From: Escherichia phage vB_Eco_ZCEC08
Sequence record: PP213477.1
DNA: 47,926 nucleotides
Strand: one strand, 5' to 3'
Positions within the stretch are counted from its first letter, which is position 1; each line of letters begins with the position of its first letter. This document shows positions 4,341 through 44,013 of this stretch, piece after piece. The notes under the pieces are model-generated. The model had not been told where the DNA came from. It saw nothing but the letters and a program-made list of their open reading frames with translations, and ran no database searches. The translations under genes and the position numbers were made by a program.

Positions 4341-5271
4341 CGCAAGACTTCCACAGCCGCGCATATCGCAGAGTCTTACCGACCCATTAGGCGCTGCGGC
4401 TCGCCTGCCGAAGATGGACAAGGTGATAACGCGAAAATACAAACAACTCATGGCTCGTGCGCTCGAGTTGTTTCGCACTATTCCGAGCAGTCAGGCTAAC
4501 GCAGAGTCAAGTGGCCTGTATTTCTACGATTTCAGTAGTGCGCGGGCCGCCACTTTTATGGATGAGTTGCAGGCGCTGATTGACGAGATTCTGCTGGAAG
4601 GTGATGATTTCGGTCACGGCAGGATGTGGGCCAATGTGTTCATCGGTGATGCATATCAGGCGGGAACGCAGAAGGCAAACTCAGAGCTATCAAGTCTTTC
4701 TCCGGTTTATGCTGAACAGCGACCGATTGCTGCGATACTCTACAGTGAGCCTTACCTGAACAGGCTGCAACTGGCGTACACATCCGGATATTCAGACTGG
4801 CGCGGACTGAGTGATTACTCCCGTCAGCAACTGGCATCCGTCATCATGGAAGGTATTGCCCGTGGTGCTAATCCTCGCGATGTTGAAGCTGATATTGTTA
4901 AGCGTGTGGATGTGTCTCATAGCTACGCGAAACAGTTGGCGCAGACTGAAATAACCGGAACGCTGCGACAGGCAAACAGGCGGGAGGTCATTGAGGCACG
5001 CGAAGAGCTAGGCATTGAGACGGTGATGCTGTGGCAGTCGGCATTGATGCGCACAACCCGCCAGACGCACGCGGCGAGACACGGCCGGTTTTACACGCCA
5101 GAAGAGATTGACACGTTTTATAGTGAGAATGGCAATAGATATAATTGCCACTGCGCACAGACTCCGGCTTTGTTAATGGGTGGTAAGCCGGTCATTCTTG
5201 AATCGTCGCAGGGAAGGCTTGATAAGCAGCGAGAAGCATGGCAATCAGCCAACAAAAAGCCCTCCAAGTGA
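4321..5271 (+). CDS. head morphogenesis protein (Mu F / SPP1 gp7-like)
   Basis: start moved to ATG overlapping portal stop; [16 protein letters not shown] resembles the F-family motif. Confidence 0.6.
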
Positions 5272-5290
5272 GGGCTTGGTTTTATTTCGA
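5256..5290. terminator. bidirectional rho-independent terminator
   Basis: AGCCCTC-CAAGT-GAGGGCT then TGGTTTTATTT; stop codon of the upstream gene lies in the hairpin; convergent genes on both sides. Confidence 0.55.
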
Positions 5291-6416: not shown

Positions 6417-6440
6417 GATTTCTCCCTCACTCATCATTTA

Positions 6441-6477
6441 ATGTAGATACTATGCACCACCACTCAATCTACGTCAA
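6441..6477 (-). promoter_or_regulatory. candidate minus-strand promoter (TTGACG ... TAGTAT) with inverted ATCTAC motifs
   Basis: reverse complement reads TTGACGTAGATTGAGTGGTGGTGCATAGTATCTACAT. Confidence 0.35.
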
Positions 6478-7621: not shown

Positions 7622-8113
7622 ATGATGTCGATTCTCGCTAAATACTGGCGACTGCTGGCAATTATTATAATTGTTGCTGCCTGCGCGCTATGGATTCGCG
7701 GAGAGGTTATAGACTACGGCGACCAGCGATACGCAGAAGGCAAAGCTCAAGCCATCGCAGACCAGAAGGCTGCAGACAAAAAAGAGGAGCAACGACGCAA
7801 TGCAGAACTGCAAAAGATTCAGTCCGACGCACAGCAAAGGATTGATGCTGCGCGCAATGATGCTGTTAATGCTGCTGCTAAGTCTGGCAGGTTGCAGCAA
7901 CAACTCACCAGTATCCGCAAGCAGCTCGTCGGATATTCCACCGCTGAGTCCATTGGCAACCCAGCCGCAGAAACCGGAGTTTTGCTTGCAGACGTGCTCC
8001 GCAAATCTGTCGAAAGAAATCAACAGCTGGCAGATTACGCTGACAGGGCGAGAGAGGCAGGATTGACGTGTGAGGCACAGTATAATTCTCTGCGTAATAA
8101 AAAAGCCCCGTGA
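7622..8113 (+). CDS. Rz: i-spanin (Rz-like)
   Basis: start at MMSILAKYWRLLAIIIIVAACALW (N-terminal TM segment) after GGAGG; coiled-coil periplasmic part; contains embedded Rz1 frame. Confidence 0.65.
   Translation: MMSILAKYWRLLAIIIIVAACALWIRGEVIDYGDQRYAEGKAQAIADQKAADKKEEQRRNAELQKIQSDAQQRIDAARNDAVNAAAKSGRLQQQLTSIRKQLVGYSTAESIGNPAAETGVLLADVLRKSVERNQQLADYADRAREAGLTCEAQYNSLRNKKAP
7845..8066 (+). CDS. Rz1: o-spanin (Rz1-like lipoprotein) embedded in Rz
   Basis: signal peptide MLRAMMLLMLLLSLAGC with lipobox LAGC; proline-rich mature region; lies wholly inside Rz in another frame. Confidence 0.65.
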   Translation: MLRAMMLLMLLLSLAGCSNNSPVSASSSSDIPPLSPLATQPQKPEFCLQTCSANLSKEINSWQITLTGRERQD

Positions 8114-8128
8114 TGGGGCTTTGTTTTA
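8100..8128. terminator. bidirectional rho-independent terminator
   Basis: AGCCCC-GTGA-TGGGGCT flanked by A-run and T-run; Rz stop codon in the loop. Confidence 0.55.
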
Positions 8129-9808: not shown

Positions 9809-9853
9809 CTTGACGTTTCTACATCATTTAGTCAATACTTGTTGACGTAGATT
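9809..9853. promoter_or_regulatory. divergent regulatory region with inverted TCTACATCA / TGACGTAGA motifs
   Basis: CTTGACGTTTCTACATCATTTAGTCAATACTTGTTGACGTAGATTG between divergent genes. Confidence 0.3.
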
Positions 9854-16794: not shown

Positions 16795-16799
16795 ACTGA

Positions 16800-16826
16800 A
16801 CCCGCATTATGCGGGTTTTTTATTTG
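16800..16826 (+). terminator. rho-independent terminator
   Basis: ACCCGCA-TTAT-GCGGGT followed by TTTTTTATTT. Confidence 0.55.
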
Positions 16827-16949: not shown

Positions 16950-16976
16950 AAAAGCCCCGTAAAGGGGCTTTTTATT
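16950..16976. terminator. bidirectional rho-independent terminator
   Basis: AAAAGCCCC-GTAA-AGGGGCTTTTT; ends the minus operon 20130->16978. Confidence 0.55.
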
Positions 16977-17687: not shown

Positions 17688-18487
17688 TAAACGGACCTCA
17701 TGAATGCTTTAATGAATTCTGCTGCGACTTGTGGAACTATGGCATTACCATAACCGCGCAATCGTCCCACTCTTGCGGATACCCCATGAGTTGCCTCGCA
17801 AAATCCGCCTGGTATGACTCTAGTTTCCTTATCTGCTCCATGGTTGGGTTTCCATGAATCCCATAAACATGAAGCCACATCTGGCGATAAAGAGTATCGT
17901 TCCTGAATTTCCCGTCCTTTCTGTAAAATGACTTGCTGAGATTCCCGTAATCCTTCCATCCTCGCGCCGTTGGTGTCGCCCATCCTCGCGCCAAAGATGA
18001 TTCTTTTCCTTTCCTGTGGAGAGCCGACGCTGCAAGCTGGCAATACTGACGCCCCGCAGGCGTAGCCTTTGTCTTCCAGGTTAAGGAATACAAAATCGAG
18101 CCAGTGCTTCCCAATTGCTGCTGCAACCTGCTCTCCAAACAGCAATTCAGGCTTGCACTCTCTGATGAGCCTGAGAAATGCTGGGGCAAGGTGTCGATCG
18201 TCGTCAAATCCGAGAGACTTACCGGCAACGCTAAACGGCTGGCAAGGTGGTGATCCTGTCCAGAGTCGAGTGCTTTCTGGTATTCCTGCCAGCTGGAGTG
18301 CAAGGGGCCACCCTCCGATTCCGGCAAAGAAGTGACACTGTGTAAATCCTTCCAGGTCTGAAGGGGTGACTTCGGTGATTGATCGTTCATCGACATATCC
18401 GTAAGGAATTAGTTTATTGTTAATTAATTCACGCAGCCATGCCGCTGCGCCCTTGTCCCACTCATTGTAATAGTGGACCATCATCAC
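17687..18487 (-). CDS. DNA (cytosine-5) methyltransferase
   Basis: motif I FFAGIGG, motif IV PPCQPFSVAGK, GEQV (ENV-like) motif. Confidence 0.8.
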   Translation of the reverse strand: MMMVHYYNEWDKGAAAWLRELINNKLIPYGYVDERSITEVTPSDLEGFTQCHFFAGIGGWPLALQLAGIPESTRLWTGSPPCQPFSVAGKSLGFDDDRHLAPAFLRLIRECKPELLFGEQVAAAIGKHWLDFVFLNLEDKGYACGASVLPACSVGSPQERKRIIFGARMGDTNGARMEGLRESQQVILQKGREIQERYSLSPDVASCLWDSWKPNHGADKETRVIPGGFCEATHGVSARVGRLRGYGNAIVPQVAAEFIKAFMRSV

Positions 18488-19488: not shown

Positions 19489-20130
19489 TTAATCCTCATC
19501 ACCAGAATTAGCAATATCGTAAAACTGACCGTAGGTTATCTGCTTAAAGTTATCAGGTATCGTTACCTGTCCGTGACCTTCATCTTTTGTATTTGGCACA
19601 GCAAAAATCAAACAATCATCCTTTTTCGGGTGTTTGCCTCCATAAGTAGAAAGCATTGCAAAACCAAATCCGCGACCAGATTTCTCACCAATGCCGGTAC
19701 GTGCGATGCCATAATGGTTAACAATGTAGTCCTTCCATTCTGGCAATAACTTTAATTTCTCGTTTGCCTCGCGCATCACTGCGTCCAGCTTTTTGTTGTA
19801 TTCACGACCATCCTTTGTGTTTCCTTTCCCACGAACAATAACCACGCGCTGACCTTCCCAAAAATCTTCACGTTTTATTGTTACAGGGCATGGAAATTCA
19901 AATTTATTGCTCCACGCAAAACTCTCAAGCAGGCCACCGCCAACAGCGCCCCAACTGCGCGTTGTGGTAAATGCGACAGCTCCAACCTTTTTCATTGCGT
20001 CACCGAGAATTTCATTGCGGCGATTCTTGATGTCATCGTATGCGTCGATTAGTTTCTTAACATCATCACCTTCAACCATGTAATAATCATAATGTTTTGC
20101 GTTACTACTCATCTTCATCACCTCTAACAT
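19489..20130 (-). CDS. hypothetical protein (213 aa); start may be 18 nt downstream
   Basis: ORF track; GAGGTG precedes the third in-frame ATG; no motif recognised. Confidence 0.5.
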   Translation of the reverse strand: MLEVMKMSSNAKHYDYYMVEGDDVKKLIDAYDDIKNRRNEILGDAMKKVGAVAFTTTRSWGAVGGGLLESFAWSNKFEFPCPVTIKREDFWEGQRVVIVRGKGNTKDGREYNKKLDAVMREANEKLKLLPEWKDYIVNHYGIARTGIGEKSGRGFGFAMLSTYGGKHPKKDDCLIFAVPNTKDEGHGQVTIPDNFKQITYGQFYDIANSGDED

Positions 20131-22590: not shown

Positions 22591-22616
22591 TAAAGCCGCA
22601 TGAAGCGGCTTTTAAT
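22591..22616. terminator. bidirectional rho-independent terminator
   Basis: AGCCGC-ATGA-AGCGGCT then TTTAATTT; abuts the 3' end of the minus-strand tRNA-like gene. Confidence 0.5.
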
Positions 22617-22617
22617 T

Positions 22618-22694
22618 TGGTGGACACGGACGGATTTGAACCTTCAATCAGCCGATTATTAGTCGGTTGCTTTAACCAATTAAGCTACGCGTCC
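22618..22694 (-). tRNA. tRNA-like gene, isotype undetermined (hand fold gives anticodon AAU)
   Basis: minus strand reads GGACGCG-TA-GCTT-AATTGGTTA-AAGC-A-ACCGA-CTAATAA-TCGGC-TGATT-GAAGG-TTCAAAT-CCGTC-CGTGTCC-ACCA: 7-bp acceptor stem (one G.U), 4-bp D stem, T-loop TTCAAAT, encoded CCA; one mismatch each in anticodon and T stems. Confidence 0.5.
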
Positions 22695-23192: not shown

Positions 23193-23236
23193 AATCTACA
23201 CCACAAAATAATCGCTGTCAACACCTGTGATATAAT
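23193..23236. promoter_or_regulatory. back-to-back promoters: minus TTGACA-17-TAGATT and plus extended -10 TGATATAAT
   Basis: hexamers read directly; plus promoter precedes the major tail gene; minus promoter points into the non-coding region and tRNA. Confidence 0.45.
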
Positions 23237-23992: not shown

Positions 23993-24025
23993 AGAAAAGC
24001 CCCGAAAGGGGCTTTGTTTTATTCT
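23992..24025. terminator. bidirectional rho-independent terminator
   Basis: AAAGCCCC-GAAA-GGGGCTTTGTTTT between convergent genes. Confidence 0.55.
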
Positions 24026-24585: not shown

Positions 24586-24633
24586 AATCTACATCACCAC
24601 CCCGCAGGTGTCAACACCACTGAGATGATATAA
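24586..24633. promoter_or_regulatory. back-to-back promoters: minus TTGACA-17-TAGATT and plus extended -10 TGATATAAT
   Basis: same architecture as 23193..23236; drives the minus moron operon and the plus tail chaperone gene. Confidence 0.5.
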
Positions 24634-24654
24634 TCAACATCAGTCAAATTCAGG

Positions 24655-34389: not shown

Positions 34390-34412
34390 TAAACCCCGCT
34401 TCGGCGGGGTTA
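34390..34412. terminator. bidirectional terminator candidate
   Basis: CCCCGC-TTCG-GCGGGG then TTAGTTTTATC, between convergent tail fibre and SSB genes. Confidence 0.5.
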
Positions 34413-34421
34413 GTTTTATCA

Positions 34422-34910
34422 TCAGAACGGAATGTCGTCGTCGAAGTCCATCGGAGGCTCGTTGCCTCCTTGTGGGCTTTGTTGTTTTGGTGGCTGCTGT
34501 TGCTGTCGTTGCGGTTGCTGCCCTGATTGCTGGCGTGGTTGCTGACCAGAATCGTCACGTTTACCACCAAGCATCTGCATGACGCCGCCAATCTGCGGAA
34601 TGACAATCTCAGTGGTGTATTTGTCCACACCGTTGCTGTCAGTCCACTTACGAGTGCGCAGTTGGCCTTCGATATAAACCTGCGAGCCTTTGCGAAGGTA
34701 TTCTCCTGCAACTTCCGCAAGTTTTCCAAAGATGACCACGCGATGCCATTCAGTCTGTTCTTTCTTTTCTCCTGTCTGCTTATCTTTCCATTGCTCAGAT
34801 GTTGCAACAGAAAGGTTGGCAATTGAAGAGCCTGATGCTGAATATTTAACTTCAGGGTCGTTACCAACTCGACCAAGGATTATGCACTTATTAATACCAA
34901 TCGAAGACAT
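34422..34910 (-). CDS. ssb: single-stranded DNA-binding protein
   Basis: OB-fold N-terminus, Gln/Pro-rich linker and acidic tail ending DDDIPF. Confidence 0.9.
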
Positions 34911-35490: not shown

Positions 35491-36540
35491 TCAAAATCCT
35501 TCAATTGGAGTTGGTTTATGTTCGGTTTTGGTTTCTTCCTGTGGCTCTGGCGGTTGTGGTTGTGGTTTAGCCAGTTTTGCAGGGTTGAAATTATCCTGCG
35601 GAGTGATTACCACAGGAGATAATTGCTCATCATTGATGAAAGACTCAATGCGATCGTATTCTGCGGCTGAAGCAGCGAGAGACGGCCATATTGCGCGAAT
35701 CTTATCTTTCAGGTTATCAGGTATTGATTTTGCTTCTTCCTTCAAGCCTTCCATGCCTTTTGCTGCTGAAAGCTGAAGTCGTGAACGCCATGACTCAAAT
35801 TCTTCGTCAACTTTAACGCCAGAGTCAACCCATTTGATGAGTCCGCGACCGTGAGCCTCGCCAATATATCCATGACGAACACTTTCACGACCAGACTCAA
35901 AGAAGATGGGGCGTAGTTCTTCTGGTAATTTGGTGAACTCCTGAATTTTCCCTCCATCGTGCATCATCATGCTCACGGTCATCTCGAACATAAAATCTTT
36001 CTCGCACACTGGCTGTAACCCAAGCGATACAGGCTCCTTCGGATTTGCGAAGTCAGTTTTCTGGCGAGCACGAAGACATACAATGATATGCATATTGCTT
36101 TGCAGCATGGCGTTCATGAACTTCTTGTGTTCAGCTTTTGCACGCTTCCAGTCAGCCATCTTTTTGCCGTTAAGAAGCGGCTTTTCAGCAATCTCTGTGC
36201 AGCTTCCTTCCCCTTCCCATTCGTGCGAACCTGAATCAATAACAAGAACCTTAACGCCGGCAGCCTGAAACTCTTCAATGGCCTGACGGTAGCGAGCGGG
36301 GCTGAATGGTGCATACATATCAGCGTGCAGAAATTTGCCATCAAGGATGTTTGAGTACAAGCGACCACGACCATTTTCAGTGTCAAGGAATCCGATTTCT
36401 TCTGGTGAGTCAACCATGCCTCTCGCCAGCTTAAGTGCGCTATATGTTTTTCCGCTACCAGACTGACCTGAAATACCTATTACCACGCGAGAACCTGAAC
36501 GCTCTGCTGGTTTAATATTGAGAATACCCATTTGCATCAC
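35491..36540 (-). CDS. RecA-like / Sak4-like ATPase (recombination module)
   Basis: Walker A GISGQSGSGKT; located between exonuclease and SSB. Confidence 0.5.
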   Translation of the reverse strand: MMQMGILNIKPAERSGSRVVIGISGQSGSGKTYSALKLARGMVDSPEEIGFLDTENGRGRLYSNILDGKFLHADMYAPFSPARYRQAIEEFQAAGVKVLVIDSGSHEWEGEGSCTEIAEKPLLNGKKMADWKRAKAEHKKFMNAMLQSNMHIIVCLRARQKTDFANPKEPVSLGLQPVCEKDFMFEMTVSMMMHDGGKIQEFTKLPEELRPIFFESGRESVRHGYIGEAHGRGLIKWVDSGVKVDEEFESWRSRLQLSAAKGMEGLKEEAKSIPDNLKDKIRAIWPSLAASAAEYDRIESFINDEQLSPVVITPQDNFNPAKLAKPQPQPPEPQEETKTEHKPTPIEGF

Positions 36541-36548
36541 CTCACTAA

Positions 36549-37487
36549 TTATAAATTAAATTGCTTCTTGAACCATTCAGGCGTTTCCATTTCGATAACA
36601 GGATTACCCATTGAATAACCCGGCCACGAATTGGCTTTTTTGCACGCCTTGTAAATTTCCATTGCACCATTCAACTGAATGCGACCGATTCGTAATTGCT
36701 CTTCAGTCAAACGAATCAAAGCAGGAATAAATGGAGCTTTCTTTTCCTGCACGAGAAGATTCACAGAGCGTGGCGCATAACCGTATGCAGCAACAAACAT
36801 ATCGTGTTGCATAGCCATTTTCATAAAGTAGCCAAGTCGCGCAGCATGACGGAAAAACTCTTCAGGCTTGGCGCTCACTGCCGTTTTGTAGTCAATAATG
36901 TCACCACCTTTTGTCAGGCAGTCAAAACGAACTTTTGCTTTTTCTCCGTTAAGTTCACCGAGAATTGACACTTCAGCATAAGCGCCAGCAAGAAGGCTGC
37001 TGTAGTAGCTGTTTGCGTGTATTACAGCACGCATTTGCTGAATTGCGTCATAATCACTACCTTCCAGCATCTGCTTTCCTGCAGCAGCTTTTTCAGCATC
37101 TTCACGGATGACATCGTAAATTTTCACTGGTTCGCCAGTCGCCTGAATAATTTTGATTACCTCAGCTTTCGACTTCCCTGATAGTCCTTTAATGCCACGC
37201 TCTTTCGCCCATGAGTTCATGTCACTAACTGTAACAAGCAGGTCATCACCAAAATCTTCTTTTGTTGGCATTCGCGCATATTCTGCATCGAAACGCTCAG
37301 GTTCAAGTAGTGCAGTATGGCTTCCAGTTCCGAAGATAAGAGCTTTTGATTGCTCATCTTCTTCGTCTTTGTAGCGCCATGCTGCTGGGCATCTGTCAAG
37401 TATATTCCATAATCCAGAACCATTAATGTGCTCTGTGTCGGCATGGTACTGTTCGTTTGTGAGTTCATTGTTGAAGTAGACTTTCAT
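36549..37487 (-). CDS. PD-(D/E)XK family exonuclease
   Basis: 312 aa; IIDYKT motif consistent with PD-(D/E)XK nuclease; adjacent to ATPase and SSB. Confidence 0.5.
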   Translation of the reverse strand: MKVYFNNELTNEQYHADTEHINGSGLWNILDRCPAAWRYKDEEDEQSKALIFGTGSHTALLEPERFDAEYARMPTKEDFGDDLLVTVSDMNSWAKERGIKGLSGKSKAEVIKIIQATGEPVKIYDVIREDAEKAAAGKQMLEGSDYDAIQQMRAVIHANSYYSSLLAGAYAEVSILGELNGEKAKVRFDCLTKGGDIIDYKTAVSAKPEEFFRHAARLGYFMKMAMQHDMFVAAYGYAPRSVNLLVQEKKAPFIPALIRLTEEQLRIGRIQLNGAMEIYKACKKANSWPGYSMGNPVIEMETPEWFKKQFNL

Positions 37488-37771: not shown

Positions 37772-37803
37772 TACCTCACTTGTTATTGTCAGTTGAATCT
37801 ACA

Positions 37804-38229
37804 TCAATCTACATCGAAAGGCAAGCCAAAATAGAAAAGCGTGGCTTTTTTTAGTTCATCAAGACCATAAGCGATGGCAGCATAATGACCAAGCCTGCAC
37901 ATCTCTGTTAGCACTGCTGATTGATCCTTGCTCACCCTGCTTTTGCTTTTATCGCGGCGCTTTGCTTCAATCATCCCACAACTGTGATTTACCCCCGGAG
38001 TCATTATCACATTGTCGCCTATACCAGCCTTAACCCCCATCTTCTGGCGCTTCAATACAAACTGGACGCGGCTGGATGTTCCTGTTTCATTCGGGACGTG
38101 AAACCAGAGCACATCAGGGAAACGGTGTTGCATCCATGTTCCATAACCCATCTGGTCAGTCTCCTCTTTTGGGCATTCTCCTCGATAACCGCTATCAAAT
38201 ACCCATATACCGCTATCAAGCTGCTTCAC
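37804..38229 (-). CDS. VRR-NUC domain nuclease
   Basis: FHVPNETG...MGVKAGIGDNVIM...IEAKRRD...SKDQ pattern. Confidence 0.6.
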   Translation of the reverse strand: MKQLDSGIWVFDSGYRGECPKEETDQMGYGTWMQHRFPDVLWFHVPNETGTSSRVQFVLKRQKMGVKAGIGDNVIMTPGVNHSCGMIEAKRRDKSKSRVSKDQSAVLTEMCRLGHYAAIAYGLDELKKATLFYFGLPFDVD

Positions 38230-38239
38230 TTTGTTATCC

Positions 38240-40144
38240 TTAAAATTCTTTTCGGTGGATTATGTCGCGACCTTTATCATTAATGCGATGCGTGATGCGT
38301 TTTGGCGCTTTAATCAACCCCGCATACATCATGAACTGCTTGGCGTTCTGGCATTTCAATATTTTCCCAGCCATTGACTTATCATCAAGGTGTGGGAATA
38401 CAGCCTTTGCCTTGAACATGTTTTTCATGTGAGTTGCGCCGCCATAAGGGTAGAAAACTTCATTAGCCCAGCCTTCTTTGCCATCACAACGGTTAATCCA
38501 GTAGCGATATAAAATCCCCTCTCCGTCCTTCGTTAGTTGAACCTTGAAATCCATAACATCAGCCCACTCGTTATCTGTATAAGCACGCTCATTCAGTGCC
38601 GAATTAGGGTCGCGCAACACGTGATCGCAATGTCTGCAATAGCGCGCAGTGGGGTCGTTTTTAGTGCCGCAACCATCATCAAAAATCCGGATTCCGTGCT
38701 TATCAAAACCGCAACGGATGTAACTGAAAAATTCTTCGCAGCGACCATCTGGAGATAGCGGGTCTTTCCCTATGCATCGACGCGCATATGGGCTGTTCAT
38801 TGTTCCACATGTATGACACGGAACTTGTTCGCCACTGCGTTTTGAACGTTGCGCTTCAGCCTCTTCCAGAATCGGGTCTTCATACAGCTGACCAAGCTCA
38901 AACATCGTGCCAGAGAAATCAAGAACCAGATGGTCTTCTTTATGATACCCGGCATCAATTTGCTCTTTCTTCAGTAGGCGCATTCCGCGACCAAGAAGCT
39001 GGACAAGGAGAGTTAGCGACATTATTTTTCGCAATATGCAGCTCGTATCCCATAACGGTATATTTACGCCAGTGGTAAGGGCGGCTATCTGGAATGTGAA
39101 TTTTTTACGCCCGGTGTATGCATCTTTTAGAGCCTTCCTTCTGGCTTTTGACCCCATATCTTCTGTAACTATTGAATAACTTCCTTCGGGTAGGTATTTT
39201 GCCGCCTCCTGACAATGTTTTTTACCAGCACATGTAATCAGTACGCCGTTTCTGTTTTTAGTCAACTCCATAACCTTGAGCATGATTTTCTGCGTCAACG
39301 TACCTTGCTCAAGAATTTCTTTCTGCATCTGCTTGAGCTGCTCGGCGGTAAAGTCCTGAGTACCATCAACATCTGAACCATGAAAATCCGAAAGGTCATA
39401 ATGCAGACTATCAACATCATGAAGACCAAAAATTGTTGGAACAAGAAAACCGTTTTCAACCATGTACTTGGTGTCTATGTTGATAATCTCTTTCTTCCAG
39501 AAAGCGCCTTTTATTGATGTAGTTCCGCGAAACGGTGAGCCTGTATAACCTATTATTCTCAACTCATGGCCATGCTTATCTTTACACCTTTTCATTAGCT
39601 CATTAATTATCACTGCATACTGCGTATCACCATTATTAACAACATCAATGTCATTAACCATATGATTTTCATCGATCAGCAGGAATCTTGGGCAAAAGTC
39701 AGAGAGCGCACCTTTTGCAATAACATTCCCATGCTCATCTTTTTTATCAAACAAAGCATTTACAACAGTACCCTCAGAACCACAGATTATTGGGTACGTA
39801 GAACTTTTCCTACCCAACGAAGCACTGAATAGCGAGTTTCTAACACCAAGCAACCATAGCTCTTCCGCATCTTGCTCCACTATTTCGCCCTGTCTTGATA
39901 AAATCATCCCTGAATAGCCCATCTCCTGAAAACGCTTTGCTATCATGGCAATCATCAGTGACTTTCCGCTACCGACACTTGCTGTTACATAGCTTGGGCC
40001 AACATAATGACGAATCACATCGCCAGTTAACTTATATATCAACCACTGATAGGGTCTTGGCTCGATATCACCAGTATCCAGATAAGATTTCAGCAGATTA
40101 ATATCAATCTCTGAAATCATTTTGTCGATTTTATGCATTACCAA
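38240..40144 (-). CDS. superfamily 2 DNA helicase with C-terminal zinc-ribbon region
   Basis: Walker A SVGSGKS, motif II LIDENH, TGSPFRG; Cys-rich C-terminal part. Confidence 0.7.
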   Translation of the reverse strand: MVMHKIDKMISEIDINLLKSYLDTGDIEPRPYQWLIYKLTGDVIRHYVGPSYVTASVGSGKSLMIAMIAKRFQEMGYSGMILSRQGEIVEQDAEELWLLGVRNSLFSASLGRKSSTYPIICGSEGTVVNALFDKKDEHGNVIAKGALSDFCPRFLLIDENHMVNDIDVVNNGDTQYAVIINELMKRCKDKHGHELRIIGYTGSPFRGTTSIKGAFWKKEIINIDTKYMVENGFLVPTIFGLHDVDSLHYDLSDFHGSDVDGTQDFTAEQLKQMQKEILEQGTLTQKIMLKVMELTKNRNGVLITCAGKKHCQEAAKYLPEGSYSIVTEDMGSKARRKALKDAYTGRKKFTFQIAALTTGVNIPLWDTSCILRKIMSLTLLVQLLGRGMRLLKKEQIDAGYHKEDHLVLDFSGTMFELGQLYEDPILEEAEAQRSKRSGEQVPCHTCGTMNSPYARRCIGKDPLSPDGRCEEFFSYIRCGFDKHGIRIFDDGCGTKNDPTARYCRHCDHVLRDPNSALNERAYTDNEWADVMDFKVQLTKDGEGILYRYWINRCDGKEGWANEVFYPYGGATHMKNMFKAKAVFPHLDDKSMAGKILKCQNAKQFMMYAGLIKAPKRITHRINDKGRDIIHRKEF

Positions 40145-40401
40145 ATCCTCGCACCAAGACGTTCAATTGTTTGTTTCTTTGTTTCATCATCTATTCCGCT
40201 ATAAAAATACATATAACTAAGATTCCATAGATAATCTTCTGGTCGCTCATCGGCAAACAAATCATCCCACTCAAAAATCCATTCTCCAGTTCTCTGTCTT
40301 CTGTATATGGTTAGCCATGTATTGCTTCGTGGCGGGTATCCGAAGGCAACAGGGATTGGCTTGCCATGAAAAATCCTCTTAAAAATGCTATCAAGGAACA
40401 C
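40138..40401 (-). CDS. hypothetical protein (87 aa)
   Basis: ORF track; start overlaps helicase start region. Confidence 0.45.
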   Translation of the reverse strand: MFLDSIFKRIFHGKPIPVAFGYPPRSNTWLTIYRRQRTGEWIFEWDDLFADERPEDYLWNLSYMYFYSGIDDETKKQTIERLGARIW

Positions 40402-40416
40402 TGCTATATCCTTTTA

Positions 40417-40446
40417 TTGATGTTTCTACGTCAGTTAGCTTATACT
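40417..40446 (+). promoter_or_regulatory. sigma70-like promoter (TTGATG - 18 nt - TATACT) with TCTAC motifs
   Basis: hexamers read directly; about 30 nt upstream of primase ATG. Confidence 0.4.
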
Positions 40447-40476
40447 CAATCTACACCAACAATCAAGGGTCAATTT

Positions 40477-41430
40477 ATGAGATACGACTGGAAAGACATT
40501 GAGCCAAAAATGCTCGGCAACTGGCAGGCTGCCATCATGTCTATCGTCAATGTGGATAGCAGAGTTTTCAATGGCAAGCACCAGCCTTGCCCTTCATGCT
40601 CCGGCAAAGACAGGTATCGCTTTGATGATAGCTTCGAAACAAAGGGCGATGGCGGCGCAATATGCAATCAGTGCGGGTCCGGCAGCGGCATGAACTGGCT
40701 GATGAAACTCTCCGGAATGAGCTTTCCTGAAGCGCTGGAGGCACTTGGTGGATTCCTGAATATGCACCCGCGTGAAAAGCTGGAGGCAATCAGGAAAGAG
40801 CTACCGAAGATAAATCACAGCGATGACTTCATCACCGAGCAGGAAGTCGCAGCAATCATGGCTAAAACGACTCGTGTCGCGATGAATGAGTGGACTTTGA
40901 TAAATGGTATTGGTTGCGACGTTAACGTCACCAGAGGCAAATCTGGAGAACTTATTGCGGTTGAGATGATGCGAGCTGACACAATGAAACTGTGCAACGT
41001 GGCATTCATTGGCATGGATGGTGATTCAATCAGAACGTTTTTCCGCGCAGGATACAACAAGGACTCAGCCATCAACGGCAAACTCACGCGCGGCGCGATA
41101 AGCCCAATCGGAGAAGACAACGGGAAGTTCATTTACCTGGTATCTGATTATGCCGATGCGTGGAAATGCCACTACTTCACTGGCGCTCATGCCTGGTGCT
41201 GCTGGTCGCCGGAAAACATGTGGGAGGTTGTGCGCTCGGTTAGCGATGAAACGAAGGCGAGATTGCGCTGCATAGTTAATTATAAATTTGACGAGCTTTG
41301 CGCTGCGGGAAATGCAGGACTTCCGGTGATGCTACCTGATGATGCTGACACAATCAGGATGGCGAAGCGAATCAGAAGAAAGATTTATGACGCTGGCGAG
41401 TTGATAGAGAAAATGTCAGTCATCAGATAA
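40477..41430 (+). CDS. DNA primase (zinc-ribbon type)
   Basis: start moved to MRYDWKD (residue 38); CPSCSGKDRYRFDD...CNQCGSG zinc-ribbon motif typical of phage primases. Confidence 0.6.
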   Translation: MRYDWKDIEPKMLGNWQAAIMSIVNVDSRVFNGKHQPCPSCSGKDRYRFDDSFETKGDGGAICNQCGSGSGMNWLMKLSGMSFPEALEALGGFLNMHPREKLEAIRKELPKINHSDDFITEQEVAAIMAKTTRVAMNEWTLINGIGCDVNVTRGKSGELIAVEMMRADTMKLCNVAFIGMDGDSIRTFFRAGYNKDSAINGKLTRGAISPIGEDNGKFIYLVSDYADAWKCHYFTGAHAWCCWSPENMWEVVRSVSDETKARLRCIVNYKFDELCAAGNAGLPVMLPDDADTIRMAKRIRRKIYDAGELIEKMSVIR

Positions 41431-41432
41431 AA

Positions 41433-41458
41433 TAAACCCTCCATCTGGAGGGTTTTTG
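41433..41458. terminator. bidirectional rho-independent terminator
   Basis: ACCCTCCA-TCTG-GAGGGT then TTTTGTT. Confidence 0.55.
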
Positions 41459-41875
41459 TTATTCTTTGAACTCTGGCGCTTCAGTCCAGAAAGCTACATT
41501 TCGCAGCGACTTACCAGTGTGATTGCACCAGTATATTCCTGAGTCGTCATACCTGGCAGTAACCTTGACGCGATCAGCATCAATAATAACAACCTCCTGT
41601 CCATCTTTAGGGTCGAAAAGACGCGCATCTTTCCAGTTGGCAATCTCATTAAAGGAAAGAAGAATATAGCCGGGAAGATAATCTCCGACATCATCGATGT
41701 GATCTATGGCTCTCTCCGTTCTCTCTCCTGTGTAGCCTCCATTCCACTCATAAAGAATGATAGTGTCTCCAACCTTAAAATCACGGCCCTTCTTTATTAT
41801 TTCAGCTTTCTTGTGCCCGGTAACTACAGGCCAGAAGTGCTCAGGTAAAATTTTAAGTTCGTGTGTTTTGCTCAT
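41459..41875 (-). CDS. ASCH-like / DUF3850-like protein
   Basis: THELKILPEHFWPVVTGHKKAEIIKKGRDFKVGDTIILYEW pattern. Confidence 0.45.
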   Translation of the reverse strand: MSKTHELKILPEHFWPVVTGHKKAEIIKKGRDFKVGDTIILYEWNGGYTGERTERAIDHIDDVGDYLPGYILLSFNEIANWKDARLFDPKDGQEVVIIDADRVKVTARYDDSGIYWCNHTGKSLRNVAFWTEAPEFKE

Positions 41876-43467
41876 TTCAAACCCCTCATAAATCTCATGC
41901 GCTTAACAGCAGCAGAAAGATAATTTCTAACCGTTGAGTTCATTCGCAGACCATCCCATGAGCCATCACCGCACATCTTTATAGCTCTTGGGTTATCCCT
42001 GTCCAGCATTAGTGGTGAATGCTTATTTTCCTCAATAGCAAGAAGAACCTCATAAACAAACTTATCAGGTGTTAGTGTGATGTTATTAGAGTCAGCAGAA
42101 TTGATTATCTTTTTAATTCTATCACGACACAGCTTGTTCTTTATAACAGACAAGTAAGGCGTTTTAATGAATGCCTGTGATTCACAAATTCGCTTAATTT
42201 TTTCTACAATGTTCTCCCATTCAGTATTTTCAAGTCCATCAAACTCCTGTTCGCCCTCAAGGAATCTTTGCAGACCAGCGAGATGCTCAAGAACTACGAT
42301 ATATCCCCATTCGACATGCTCCATCGTAACTGCTGGCGTCATTCCACGGCGACTTGACAGATCTGCGTAAGCCGCAAGCGTTGCAAGGTCTACAATCATT
42401 AGCCCCATGCGCGGGATAACGTCACCAACAACACCATCGCGATCACCAAGCTCACTTTCCAGTTTCATAGACAGAGATCTGTGCAGTTTTTTCACATCAT
42501 CATCAGCCCATACAGCGTTAGTTTTCGCGGTAAGAATCCTACCCTTCCACTCATTGATTATTTTTCTTGAAAGTGTGCCGCTAGCTTCCACATCCTTCAT
42601 CGCTGGCATTTCCTCACCAGCAAGATGTCCAAGCTGAAACAGCACTCGCCCCATGCCGCCATCTTTCTGCCATGAACGCGCAGCATCTATTCCCTGCTCT
42701 GGAGTGACAGTAATCAGCGGAACAAATTTTGCGTTTTCAATTCCACCGTCTTTTGTTGCAAGTTCGTACTCATTCATTGCCGACTTGAGCGCGCGCCCAA
42801 CGCTGTGGTCCATCATCGCAAGGCGCTTATAATCTATGACGCCTTTCCCATCATCACCACCAGTAAGTGGCACTATCCATCCCTCAGCACTTGCTGCCGC
42901 CATGATGCGTTTTGGGTTTTGTTCCCAAGTAAGGTTTTCAAGCAGCTCCTTGATTATTGGTCTGTTAGGCACCCACACGCCGCCATCAGTGAGGCCTCTA
43001 TACCACGCCATAGTACCGCCAAGATATGCATTGCGCGGGTTGTTCCAGTCTTCAAGATGTTGTTTGTCATCGTTCACAACGTAGAGCAAAGAACCACCTC
43101 CAGCAATCAGGTCTAACTGCATCTGTTTCGTCGAGGTTGATTTAGATGCGCAAACTCTGGAGCCAATTCCCAGTGCATTGGAATATGCCCTAACGAAACT
43201 CACAGGGGCACCCTTACCTGCACCAGAGCGAGCCACCAGAAATATACCAGTATTGCAGATACTACCTGTTGGACCAATCAAATATCGTCCAGCCATCGCC
43301 TGAGTAAGACCCAAGGCACCAGTTAAGCGATATCTCTCCCCATCATTACGGCGCTCAAAGTTTTTCGCAATCTCATCCATAAACTCACCAAGTGCACCAG
43401 GAGCCTTCCTGTTTATACCCATAGCCATAGAATCAAAATCAATAGCGCCCATCAATATACTCTCCAT
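41872..43467 (-). CDS. hypothetical replication-module protein (531 aa)
   Basis: ORF track; degenerate P-loop-like LVARSGAGKGA; function not recognised. Confidence 0.5.
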   Translation of the reverse strand: MESILMGAIDFDSMAMGINRKAPGALGEFMDEIAKNFERRNDGERYRLTGALGLTQAMAGRYLIGPTGSICNTGIFLVARSGAGKGAPVSFVRAYSNALGIGSRVCASKSTSTKQMQLDLIAGGGSLLYVVNDDKQHLEDWNNPRNAYLGGTMAWYRGLTDGGVWVPNRPIIKELLENLTWEQNPKRIMAAASAEGWIVPLTGGDDGKGVIDYKRLAMMDHSVGRALKSAMNEYELATKDGGIENAKFVPLITVTPEQGIDAARSWQKDGGMGRVLFQLGHLAGEEMPAMKDVEASGTLSRKIINEWKGRILTAKTNAVWADDDVKKLHRSLSMKLESELGDRDGVVGDVIPRMGLMIVDLATLAAYADLSSRRGMTPAVTMEHVEWGYIVVLEHLAGLQRFLEGEQEFDGLENTEWENIVEKIKRICESQAFIKTPYLSVIKNKLCRDRIKKIINSADSNNITLTPDKFVYEVLLAIEENKHSPLMLDRDNPRAIKMCGDGSWDGLRMNSTVRNYLSAAVKRMRFMRGLK

Positions 43468-43781
43468 ACTCGCAAGAATTTGCCAGGGATAATACCTTGT
43501 TTCACCGTTAACACAGCGCCAACCCTGTCCGCCTCAATTTTTAGCGCCTTCTGAAGTGACGTCATTGTCATCTGAAAACCTCGCTCTATATCGTATGCGT
43601 AGCACCCATCTCTTCTACCAATCAAAATTGAAGTTGAATACCCGTTCTCAAAGTAAAACTGACACCCATCAGGAGCGGTAAGATTATTTATCACGTCGTG
43701 AGCAAGCGATGTCGTTACAGGGAATATAGGCGCGCAACTCATACCTACCTCACTCAACTCGCTTAATGTGCAAAACTTCAT
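43452..43781 (-). CDS. hypothetical protein
   Basis: ORF track. Confidence 0.4.
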   Translation of the reverse strand: MKFCTLSELSEVGMSCAPIFPVTTSLAHDVINNLTAPDGCQFYFENGYSTSILIGRRDGCYAYDIERGFQMTMTSLQKALKIEADRVGAVLTVKQGIIPGKFLRVWRVY

Positions 43782-43980
43782 CGAAATATGAGCACGTTCT
43801 GAATTTCATCCCAAAATCCTCACCAACCCTTCCGAGACACGCGCGAAATCTTTCAACAGACAGACCTTTATATGCAATGTCCTCATAAGCAATCGAATTA
43901 ACCTGACCAACATCCATATGTTTTGCAACGCGATACACAAACTCCATCTTTGAACCATCACGATACATTTTGTTTCTCAT
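43750..43980 (-). CDS. hypothetical protein (first gene of the replication operon)
   Basis: ORF track 43750..44013; start moved to the ATG that follows GGAGGT. Confidence 0.4.
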   Translation of the reverse strand: MRNKMYRDGSKMEFVYRVAKHMDVGQVNSIAYEDIAYKGLSVERFRACLGRVGEDFGMKFRTCSYFDEVLHIKRVE

Positions 43981-44013
43981 AGTAACCTCCATCTGAATTC
44001 CAGCAGTAACCAT

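Follow-up and report, generated by a model that had tools for sequence, protein, structure and literature searches.

A primase-homologue gene predicted to form its own one-gene transcription unit against the minus-strand replication genes of a Skatevirus-like Escherichia phage

We found that the primase homologue of Escherichia phage vB_Eco_ZCEC08 probably forms a self-contained, single-gene transcription unit that opposes the other replication and recombination genes of the phage, a reading to which we assign a probability of about 0.7. The stretch of 47,926 nucleotides deposited as PP213477.1 is referred to here as the window. Given a conserved promoter region before the gene and a predicted two-way hairpin after it, the locus is best read in silico as a monocistronic primase unit. 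The phage is a Skatevirus-like small siphovirus, a group that has been described previously (PMC11990801), and our literature searches found no transcriptome of Skate-like or T1-like phages.

The 317-aa primase homologue is encoded at 40477..41430 on the plus strand, inside a longer plus-strand ORF (40366..41430); in the protein, a zinc ribbon precedes an RNA-polymerase/Toprim-like domain of the P4-alpha or DnaG type. The ATG at 40477 agrees as start codon with the N-termini of 29 homologues and with an upstream Shine-Dalgarno sequence, AAGGG (40465..40469, plus strand, 7 nt 5' of the ATG), which is kept in relatives. Several GenBank records, including those of Bas77 and seszw, give a 1011-nt primase gene beginning at the ATG at 40420, which lies within the putative -35 element TTGATG and has no ribosome-binding site; the 954-nt gene from 40477 fits the N-termini of the homologues, and several GenBank starts appear to fall inside the promoter.

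All genes flanking the primase lie on the minus strand, leaving it the sole plus-strand gene between two minus-strand sets. The downstream set begins with an 87-aa ORF (40138..40401; PHROG 5903, E 6e-14), divergent from the primase, and continues with a RadD-like superfamily 2 helicase with C-terminal zinc ribbons (38240..40144; Pfam Helicase_C, PHROG 16; its NCBIfam RadD match, E 5.3e-53, is under that model's cut-off), a VRR-NUC-like protein, an exonuclease VIII-like DUF3799 protein (36549..37487), an AAA_24 ATPase (35491..36540) and SSB (34422..34910). The upstream set comprises a 531-aa protein (41872..43467) and, as its last gene, a DUF3850/ASCH gene (41459..41875; Pfam DUF3850, E 1.2e-16) convergent with the primase. 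This ORF and domain annotation confirmed the preliminary description, which had placed the primase on the plus strand and the helicase, nucleases and SSB on the minus strand. The 531-aa protein is named (replicative) DNA helicase in relatives (RefSeq and seszw records); it had no Pfam match, matched PHROG 3022 'DNA primase' over the C-terminal half only (356-712 of 788; E 1.5e-13), and showed no BLASTP similarity to the Vibrio DUF3987 protein. Together, the 531-aa and 317-aa proteins may represent a split primase-helicase. A replication-origin signal was sought, but GC skew tracked the coding strand. The local repeats around the primase included nothing remarkable.

The primase had previously been credited with a promoter of its own, TTGATG-18-TATACT. 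This sigma-70-like site is present on the plus strand at 40417..40446, with a 9/12 match, a predicted start at ~40453 and a -10 element ending 30 nt 5' of the ATG at 40477. The hexamers by themselves, however, are at chance level: such matches occurred 19 times in 9 kb against 17.7 expected. We then compared the window with HC6, Bas77, Akira and IME207, and found one variable column in the 60 nt 5' of the ATG, versus 162 of 954 (17%) in the coding sequence. It did not matter for this conservation whether the helicase gene or the 87-aa ORF lay next upstream. In DS8, where the upstream sequence is otherwise different, TTGATT-17-TACAAT occupies the matching position, and the Klebsiella phage KP591P3, whose primase is 61% identical, has TTGCTC-17-TAGACT there. 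The hexamers are weak in KP591P3 and ZX4.

The region also carries two copies of the 9-mer TCTACRYCA on the plus strand. Copy 1, TCTACGTCA (40425..40433), lies in the promoter spacer beside the -35, and copy 2, TCTACACCA (40450..40458), lies 3 nt past the -10, over the predicted start; KP591P3 retains the same order of -35, 9-mer, -10 and second 9-mer. Conservation and the two 9-mers, rather than the chance-level hexamers, support a functional promoter region before the primase, and to this extent the earlier promoter assignment holds.

The window contains 14 occurrences of TCTACRYCA against 1.13 expected, an approximately 13-fold excess that was reached in 0 of 100 shuffles. The sites start at 1473, 6468, 9818, 9843 (minus), 13709, 20142, 20173, 23195, 24588, 37798, 40425, 40450, 44578 (minus) and 44595 (minus). 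By our reading, 13 of the 14 are intergenic, often paired, and at the 5' ends of transcription units. In HC6, 12 of 14 sites are intergenic in a genome that is 7.4% intergenic (binomial 2e-12), and KP591P3 has 15 copies versus 1.05 expected, 14 of which are intergenic and at orthologous junctions. Variants of the layout at the primase, in which a -35 is followed by two bases, a 9-mer, 5-7 bases, a -10 and another 9-mer, are seen again at 1442, 9810 and 20136, and a 9-mer stands just past the -10 also at 1473 (plus), 6447..6439 (minus) and 9851..9843 (minus). The position of the 9-mer relative to the hexamers varies among promoters, from the spacer at the primase to the -35 or -10 elsewhere, and the reversed 9-mer supplies the -35 (TTGACG) or the -10 (TAGATT) of the best-scoring promoters of the genome. 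We had considered that the element might always point toward the gene it serves, which the reversed copies forming -35 and -10 elements ruled out. Literature searches on TCTACRYCA found no description of it. In Skate-like phages, TCTACRYCA is probably an element that accompanies promoters or binds a regulator.

This distribution allows an alternative in which initiation would depend on TCTACRYCA and a putative phage or host factor, with the hexamers partly incidental and the primase belonging to a phage-wide regulon that is switched together. The enrichment of the 9-mer, its intergenic placement and its conservation at orthologous junctions despite 61% primase identity all fit such a dependence, as do the two copies that bracket the -10, and T1-like phage TLS has an analogous intergenic repeat of 21 nt whose sequence differs from TCTACRYCA (PMC11447400). 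However, the position of the element varies and both orientations occur. The reversed 9-mer gives good TTGACG and TAGATT elements, so promoter hexamers may account for some of the enrichment, and the palindromic-operator reading, TGAYGT-N4-ACRTCA, was rejected for want of enrichment (12 sites versus 7.3 expected); TTGAYGT was weakly enriched (27 versus 16.9). We consider a factor-dependent primase promoter to be possible, and rather doubtful.

Three further placements of the element were observed. Within the minus-strand operon, the short gap that separates the VRR-NUC-like gene from the following gene holds two tandem 9-mers, TCTACATCAATCTACATCG, at 37798-37816 (plus). The equivalent spot in KP591P3 has a single 9-mer (32115 in its sequence), and the tandem may serve as a promoter inside the operon or as a site of regulation. 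The regions 23216-23236 and 24609-24634, upstream of structural genes, both read TGTCAACACC and then an extended -10, TGATATAAT, with a TCTACAYCA copy 12 nt upstream in each, and their opposite strand reads TTGACA-17-TAGATT. KP591P3 has the same pair of promoter regions, at about 18058-18095 and 19681-19720 in its sequence.

At the other end of the gene, we examined the hairpin AAACCCTCC-ATCT-GGAGGGTTT (41434..41455), which can form on both strands. The bases that come after it read TTGTTATT (plus strand) and ATTTTAT (minus strand). It starts 4 nt past the primase stop codon, between two convergent stop codons that are 28 nt apart. The stem has 9 bp, with a folding energy of -17.1 kcal/mol (plus) or -15.1 kcal/mol (minus) and z-scores of -4.2 and -3.7. 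T-runs are present on both strands, the minus-strand U-tract (UUUAUUUUAU) being interrupted. In HC6, Bas77, Akira, IME207, KP591P3, ZX4 and seszw the stem is invariant and the loop variable, with six loop sequences (ATCT, GACT, ATAT, AATC, TGAT and GATT); in the two Klebsiella phages, KP591P3 and ZX4, a stop codon lies within the hairpin loop. Because the stem never varies, there are no compensatory changes. An invariant stem with a variable loop fits selection on the hairpin. As a prediction, the bidirectional terminator proposed after the primase was supported by its energies, its z-scores and its T-runs on both strands.

Two-way intrinsic terminators are common in E. coli. Those of convergent bacterial genes likewise consist of one GC-rich hairpin between an A-tract and a T-tract, and we saw no notable difference from the hairpin described here. 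Similar strong hairpins, several of them two-way, were found at other convergent junctions of the window, at 5257-5277, 8102-8122, 23996-24015 and 34392-34411; those at 5257-5277 and 23996-24015 are predicted on both strands. They share one style, AAAGCCCC-loop-GGGGCTTT or close to it, with further strong hairpins assigned to convergent junctions at 16798-16818, 16950-16972 and 22592-22612.

Having observed the identity, orientation and synteny of the gene and the conservation of its promoter region and hairpin, we infer from them a start site, points of termination and a purpose. Host RNA polymerase would initiate at ~40453, using a promoter of sigma-70 type within the 75 bp that separate the primase gene from the divergent 87-aa ORF and helicase genes. 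The two 9-mers, one in the spacer and one at the start site, would group this promoter, in its regulation, with the majority of the phage's promoter regions. Plus-strand transcription would end at the hairpin 4 nt past the stop codon, and the opposite strand of the same hairpin would terminate the convergent unit of the DUF3850 and 531-aa genes. Such a layout could set the dosage or timing of the primase apart from the long minus-strand operons and limit head-on transcription. The preliminary interpretation, which is for the most part reasonable, had spoken of a single surrounding operon, and this part did not stand, as the hairpin would be expected to divide the minus-strand genes between two units.

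If the hairpin terminates minus-strand transcription, the unit of the 87-aa ORF and helicase needs its own promoter. A scan of 40402-41434 found no minus-strand promoter of at least 9/12 with a canonical -10. The best candidate, from a relaxed scan, is TTGATT-16-TATAAG (40439..40466, minus; 9/12), which is weak: its TATAAG (40444-40439, minus) has no final T and overlaps the plus-strand TATACT (40441-40446) by 4 bp, and it is not clearly retained in KP591P3. Since this candidate is poor, antisense read-through over the primase is possible and perhaps substantial. An alternative reading takes this further and makes the primase antisense within one long minus-strand transcript that would start upstream of 44013 and pass a hairpin leaky in the minus direction, with the helicase, nuclease and SSB genes expressed mainly by read-through and the primase modulated by transcriptional interference or antisense RNA. 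Besides the empty scan, the interrupted minus-strand U-tract speaks for it, as does the lack of a minus-oriented 9-mer before the 87-aa/helicase unit, which several other divergent junctions do have. Against it, there are T-runs on both strands, and the hairpin is like the two-way terminators found elsewhere in the genome. The unit at 44013..41459 likewise has no predicted promoter, so the scan is insensitive for this phage, and the conserved 60-nt block could contain a back-to-back minus-strand promoter. We consider one long transcript, too, to be possible, and rather doubtful.

The overlap of the two -10 elements also permits a far more speculative proposal, in which the conserved 60 bp would act as a two-way switch. 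Back-to-back promoters with overlapping -10s, both bracketed by the 9-mers, would be chosen between by a TCTACRYCA-bound factor, in favour of either the primase or the helicase/recombination operon; hairpin read-through would add antisense control, and the primase would perhaps be a non-catalytic initiator or loader. We regard this combination as very improbable.

The arrangement is not peculiar to this locus: gene orientation alternates over about 17 blocks along the 47.7 kb of the closest annotated relative, and four of these blocks hold a single gene. The primase unit is the smallest protein-coding case of a general pattern of motif-bearing promoter regions and hairpin-closed convergent ends, and the genome has the appearance of a patchwork of short units with terminators at their ends. 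A minus-strand tRNA gene (22621-22694) also appears to be a unit of its own, with a 10/12 promoter, TTGACA-17-TAGATT (23221-23193, minus), whose -10 comes from a reversed 9-mer, and a hairpin at 22612-22592 (minus). Rfam searches found this tRNA and nothing else.

The locus was then compared with those of related phages. Over the 1.8 kb around the primase, identity was 97.7% with Escherichia phages HC6 and 6947 and about 90-94% with roughly 130 Salmonella phages. A lone plus-strand primase was also found in HC6, Bas77, Akira, DS8, IME207, KP591P3, ZX4 and seszw, that is, in every close relative examined, which upholds the arrangement in synteny; the layout is present in more than 140 deposited genomes. 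The neighbourhood is less constant. The 87-aa ORF is annotated in HC6, IME207 and seszw and absent in Akira, Bas77 and KP591P3, and in DS8 and ZX4 an HNH endonuclease gene between helicase and primase replaces it. The two junctions flanking the primase (40138-40476 and 41431-41875) are hot spots for accessory genes, with differing ASCH/DUF3850 and small genes on the far side. Phage seszw was the subject of a laboratory genome-reduction study that yielded a 37.8-kb mutant (PMC9825161). In the reduced mutant seszw_270S the promoter block, primase and hairpin are kept, and SSB and two genes just past the hairpin are deleted.

These comparisons bear on whether the orientation has any functional meaning. 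The inversion could have been neutral, and fixed in the ancestor of a genome that tolerates strand switches, a reading consistent with the roughly 17 alternating blocks and the other single-gene blocks of the closest annotated relative, and with the accessory genes (HNH endonucleases, ASCH variants) at both primase junctions. We think it quite unlikely: the arrangement, promoter block and hairpin are still present in lineages whose primases are 58-61% identical, and they came through laboratory genome reduction.

More distant phages suggest where the arrangement comes from. Vibrio phages 1.105.O and F27 have an orthologous primase, helicase (38% identity, E 3e-123), exonuclease VIII (32%) and P-loop ATPase in the same order. 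In contrast to the window, these genes lie on one strand throughout, and the primase is part of the operon, with no hairpin-bounded unit of its own. The term 'inverted', used for the primase at the outset, is justified because the Vibrio phages carry the same order on one strand. The T1-like phages (Drexlerviridae: T1, TLS, Warwickvirus and Webervirus) encode a homologous primase, with 31-34% identity in the examples examined, and in them, too, this gene is transcribed away from that of a homologous RadD-like helicase, which is followed by a VRR-NUC gene. Divergence of primase and helicase was found in Warwickvirus, Webervirus and Kosakonia phage Kc166B, and a re-annotation of TLS remarked on the opposite orientation of the two genes, as well as on intergenic repeats and terminator-bounded modules (PMC11447400). 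The T1-like primase has a co-oriented regulator gene before it and more plus-strand genes after it, whereas the Skate-like primase stands alone; in Kc166B the primase heads a longer plus-strand set, as in T1-like phages. Unlike in T1-like phages, a convergent two-way terminator would close the Skate-like unit, and past this terminator comes a second minus-strand unit. The arrangement would be an old inheritance of Skatevirus-like siphoviruses, related to the opposition of primase and helicase in T1-like phages.

Finally, we assessed whether the product of the unit is a primase. The label 'zinc-ribbon primase' was sound as a statement of homology. Pfam detected the zinc ribbon only (Zn_Ribbon_Prim, PF08273; E 6.7e-12; residues 33-72), in which C38, C41, C63 and C66 are invariant across the 29 homologues and a wider set, and PHROG 510 'DNA primase' covers the entire 317-aa protein (E 3.7e-79). 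A profile of the 29 homologues aligned with residues 1-400 of P4 alpha over 290 columns (hhalign; probability 99.7, E 1.8e-25), indicating full-length homology to the primase domain of this satellite phage P4 protein, from the zinc ribbon through the Toprim-like domain. P4 alpha has fused helicase and origin-binding parts, which the 317-aa protein does not have. An AlphaFold2 model of the protein (pLDDT 83.5) gave T7 gp4 primase (probability 1.0, E 1.4e-4), T4 gp61, the DnaG core and Twinkle as best Foldseek matches; the TM-scores were low (about 0.3) because the protein is multi-domain. According to the model, T7 gp4, T4 gp61 and DnaG share its zinc-ribbon and RNA-polymerase/Toprim fold, with sequence similarity confined to the zinc ribbon. 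When the family was aligned with T7 gp4 by hhalign, the zinc ribbon aligned and nothing more; neither the protein nor the family profile gave a meaningful match in sequence searches of the PDB; and Pfam Toprim had no match in any of the 29 family members, even at E 5.

The active-site positions differ from those of P4 alpha, and work by Strack et al. in 1992 reportedly showed the Toprim glutamate to be essential in that protein. In the alignment, the glutamate of the P4 'EGYATA' motif falls on Ser223 of the local motif 'SDYADA', within IYLVSDYADAW (41140-41165, plus strand; aa 220-229). At this position the 29 sequences have S, A or C, or D in some T1-like members, and the wider set has S, A, L, R, C or V; the adjacent residue is D, N, E or S in the family. 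The glutamate was absent throughout 29 + 8 sequences, T1-like and Vibrio phage members included. In the DxD region (41272-41295, plus strand; aa 266-273), hhalign put the P4 'DRD' motif on N267-Y-K, and MAFFT put its second Asp on the nearly invariant D272; the first Asp is conserved in neither alignment. D227, H232, T235 and N247 are invariant in the 29 sequences, and of these only N247 is invariant in the wider set that includes P4 alpha. Literature searches on EGYATA found nothing. These substitutions suggest that the primase homologue may have an unusual active site or be non-catalytic.

Since the layout is conserved and was already visible in a well-sampled phage group, the finding itself is low in novelty; it is largely ordinary, being common to the whole group and one among many small units. 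It would mean that a Skatevirus-like phage makes its primase homologue from an insulated unit with no other gene in it, in a conserved layout already contained in public annotations. A 9-mer that probably marks nearly every transcription unit of these phages would be an aid to their annotation and to phage engineering. The 'DNA primase' family of T1-like and Skate-like phages, moreover, goes without a catalytic residue that is regarded as essential in the nearest relative to have been characterised.
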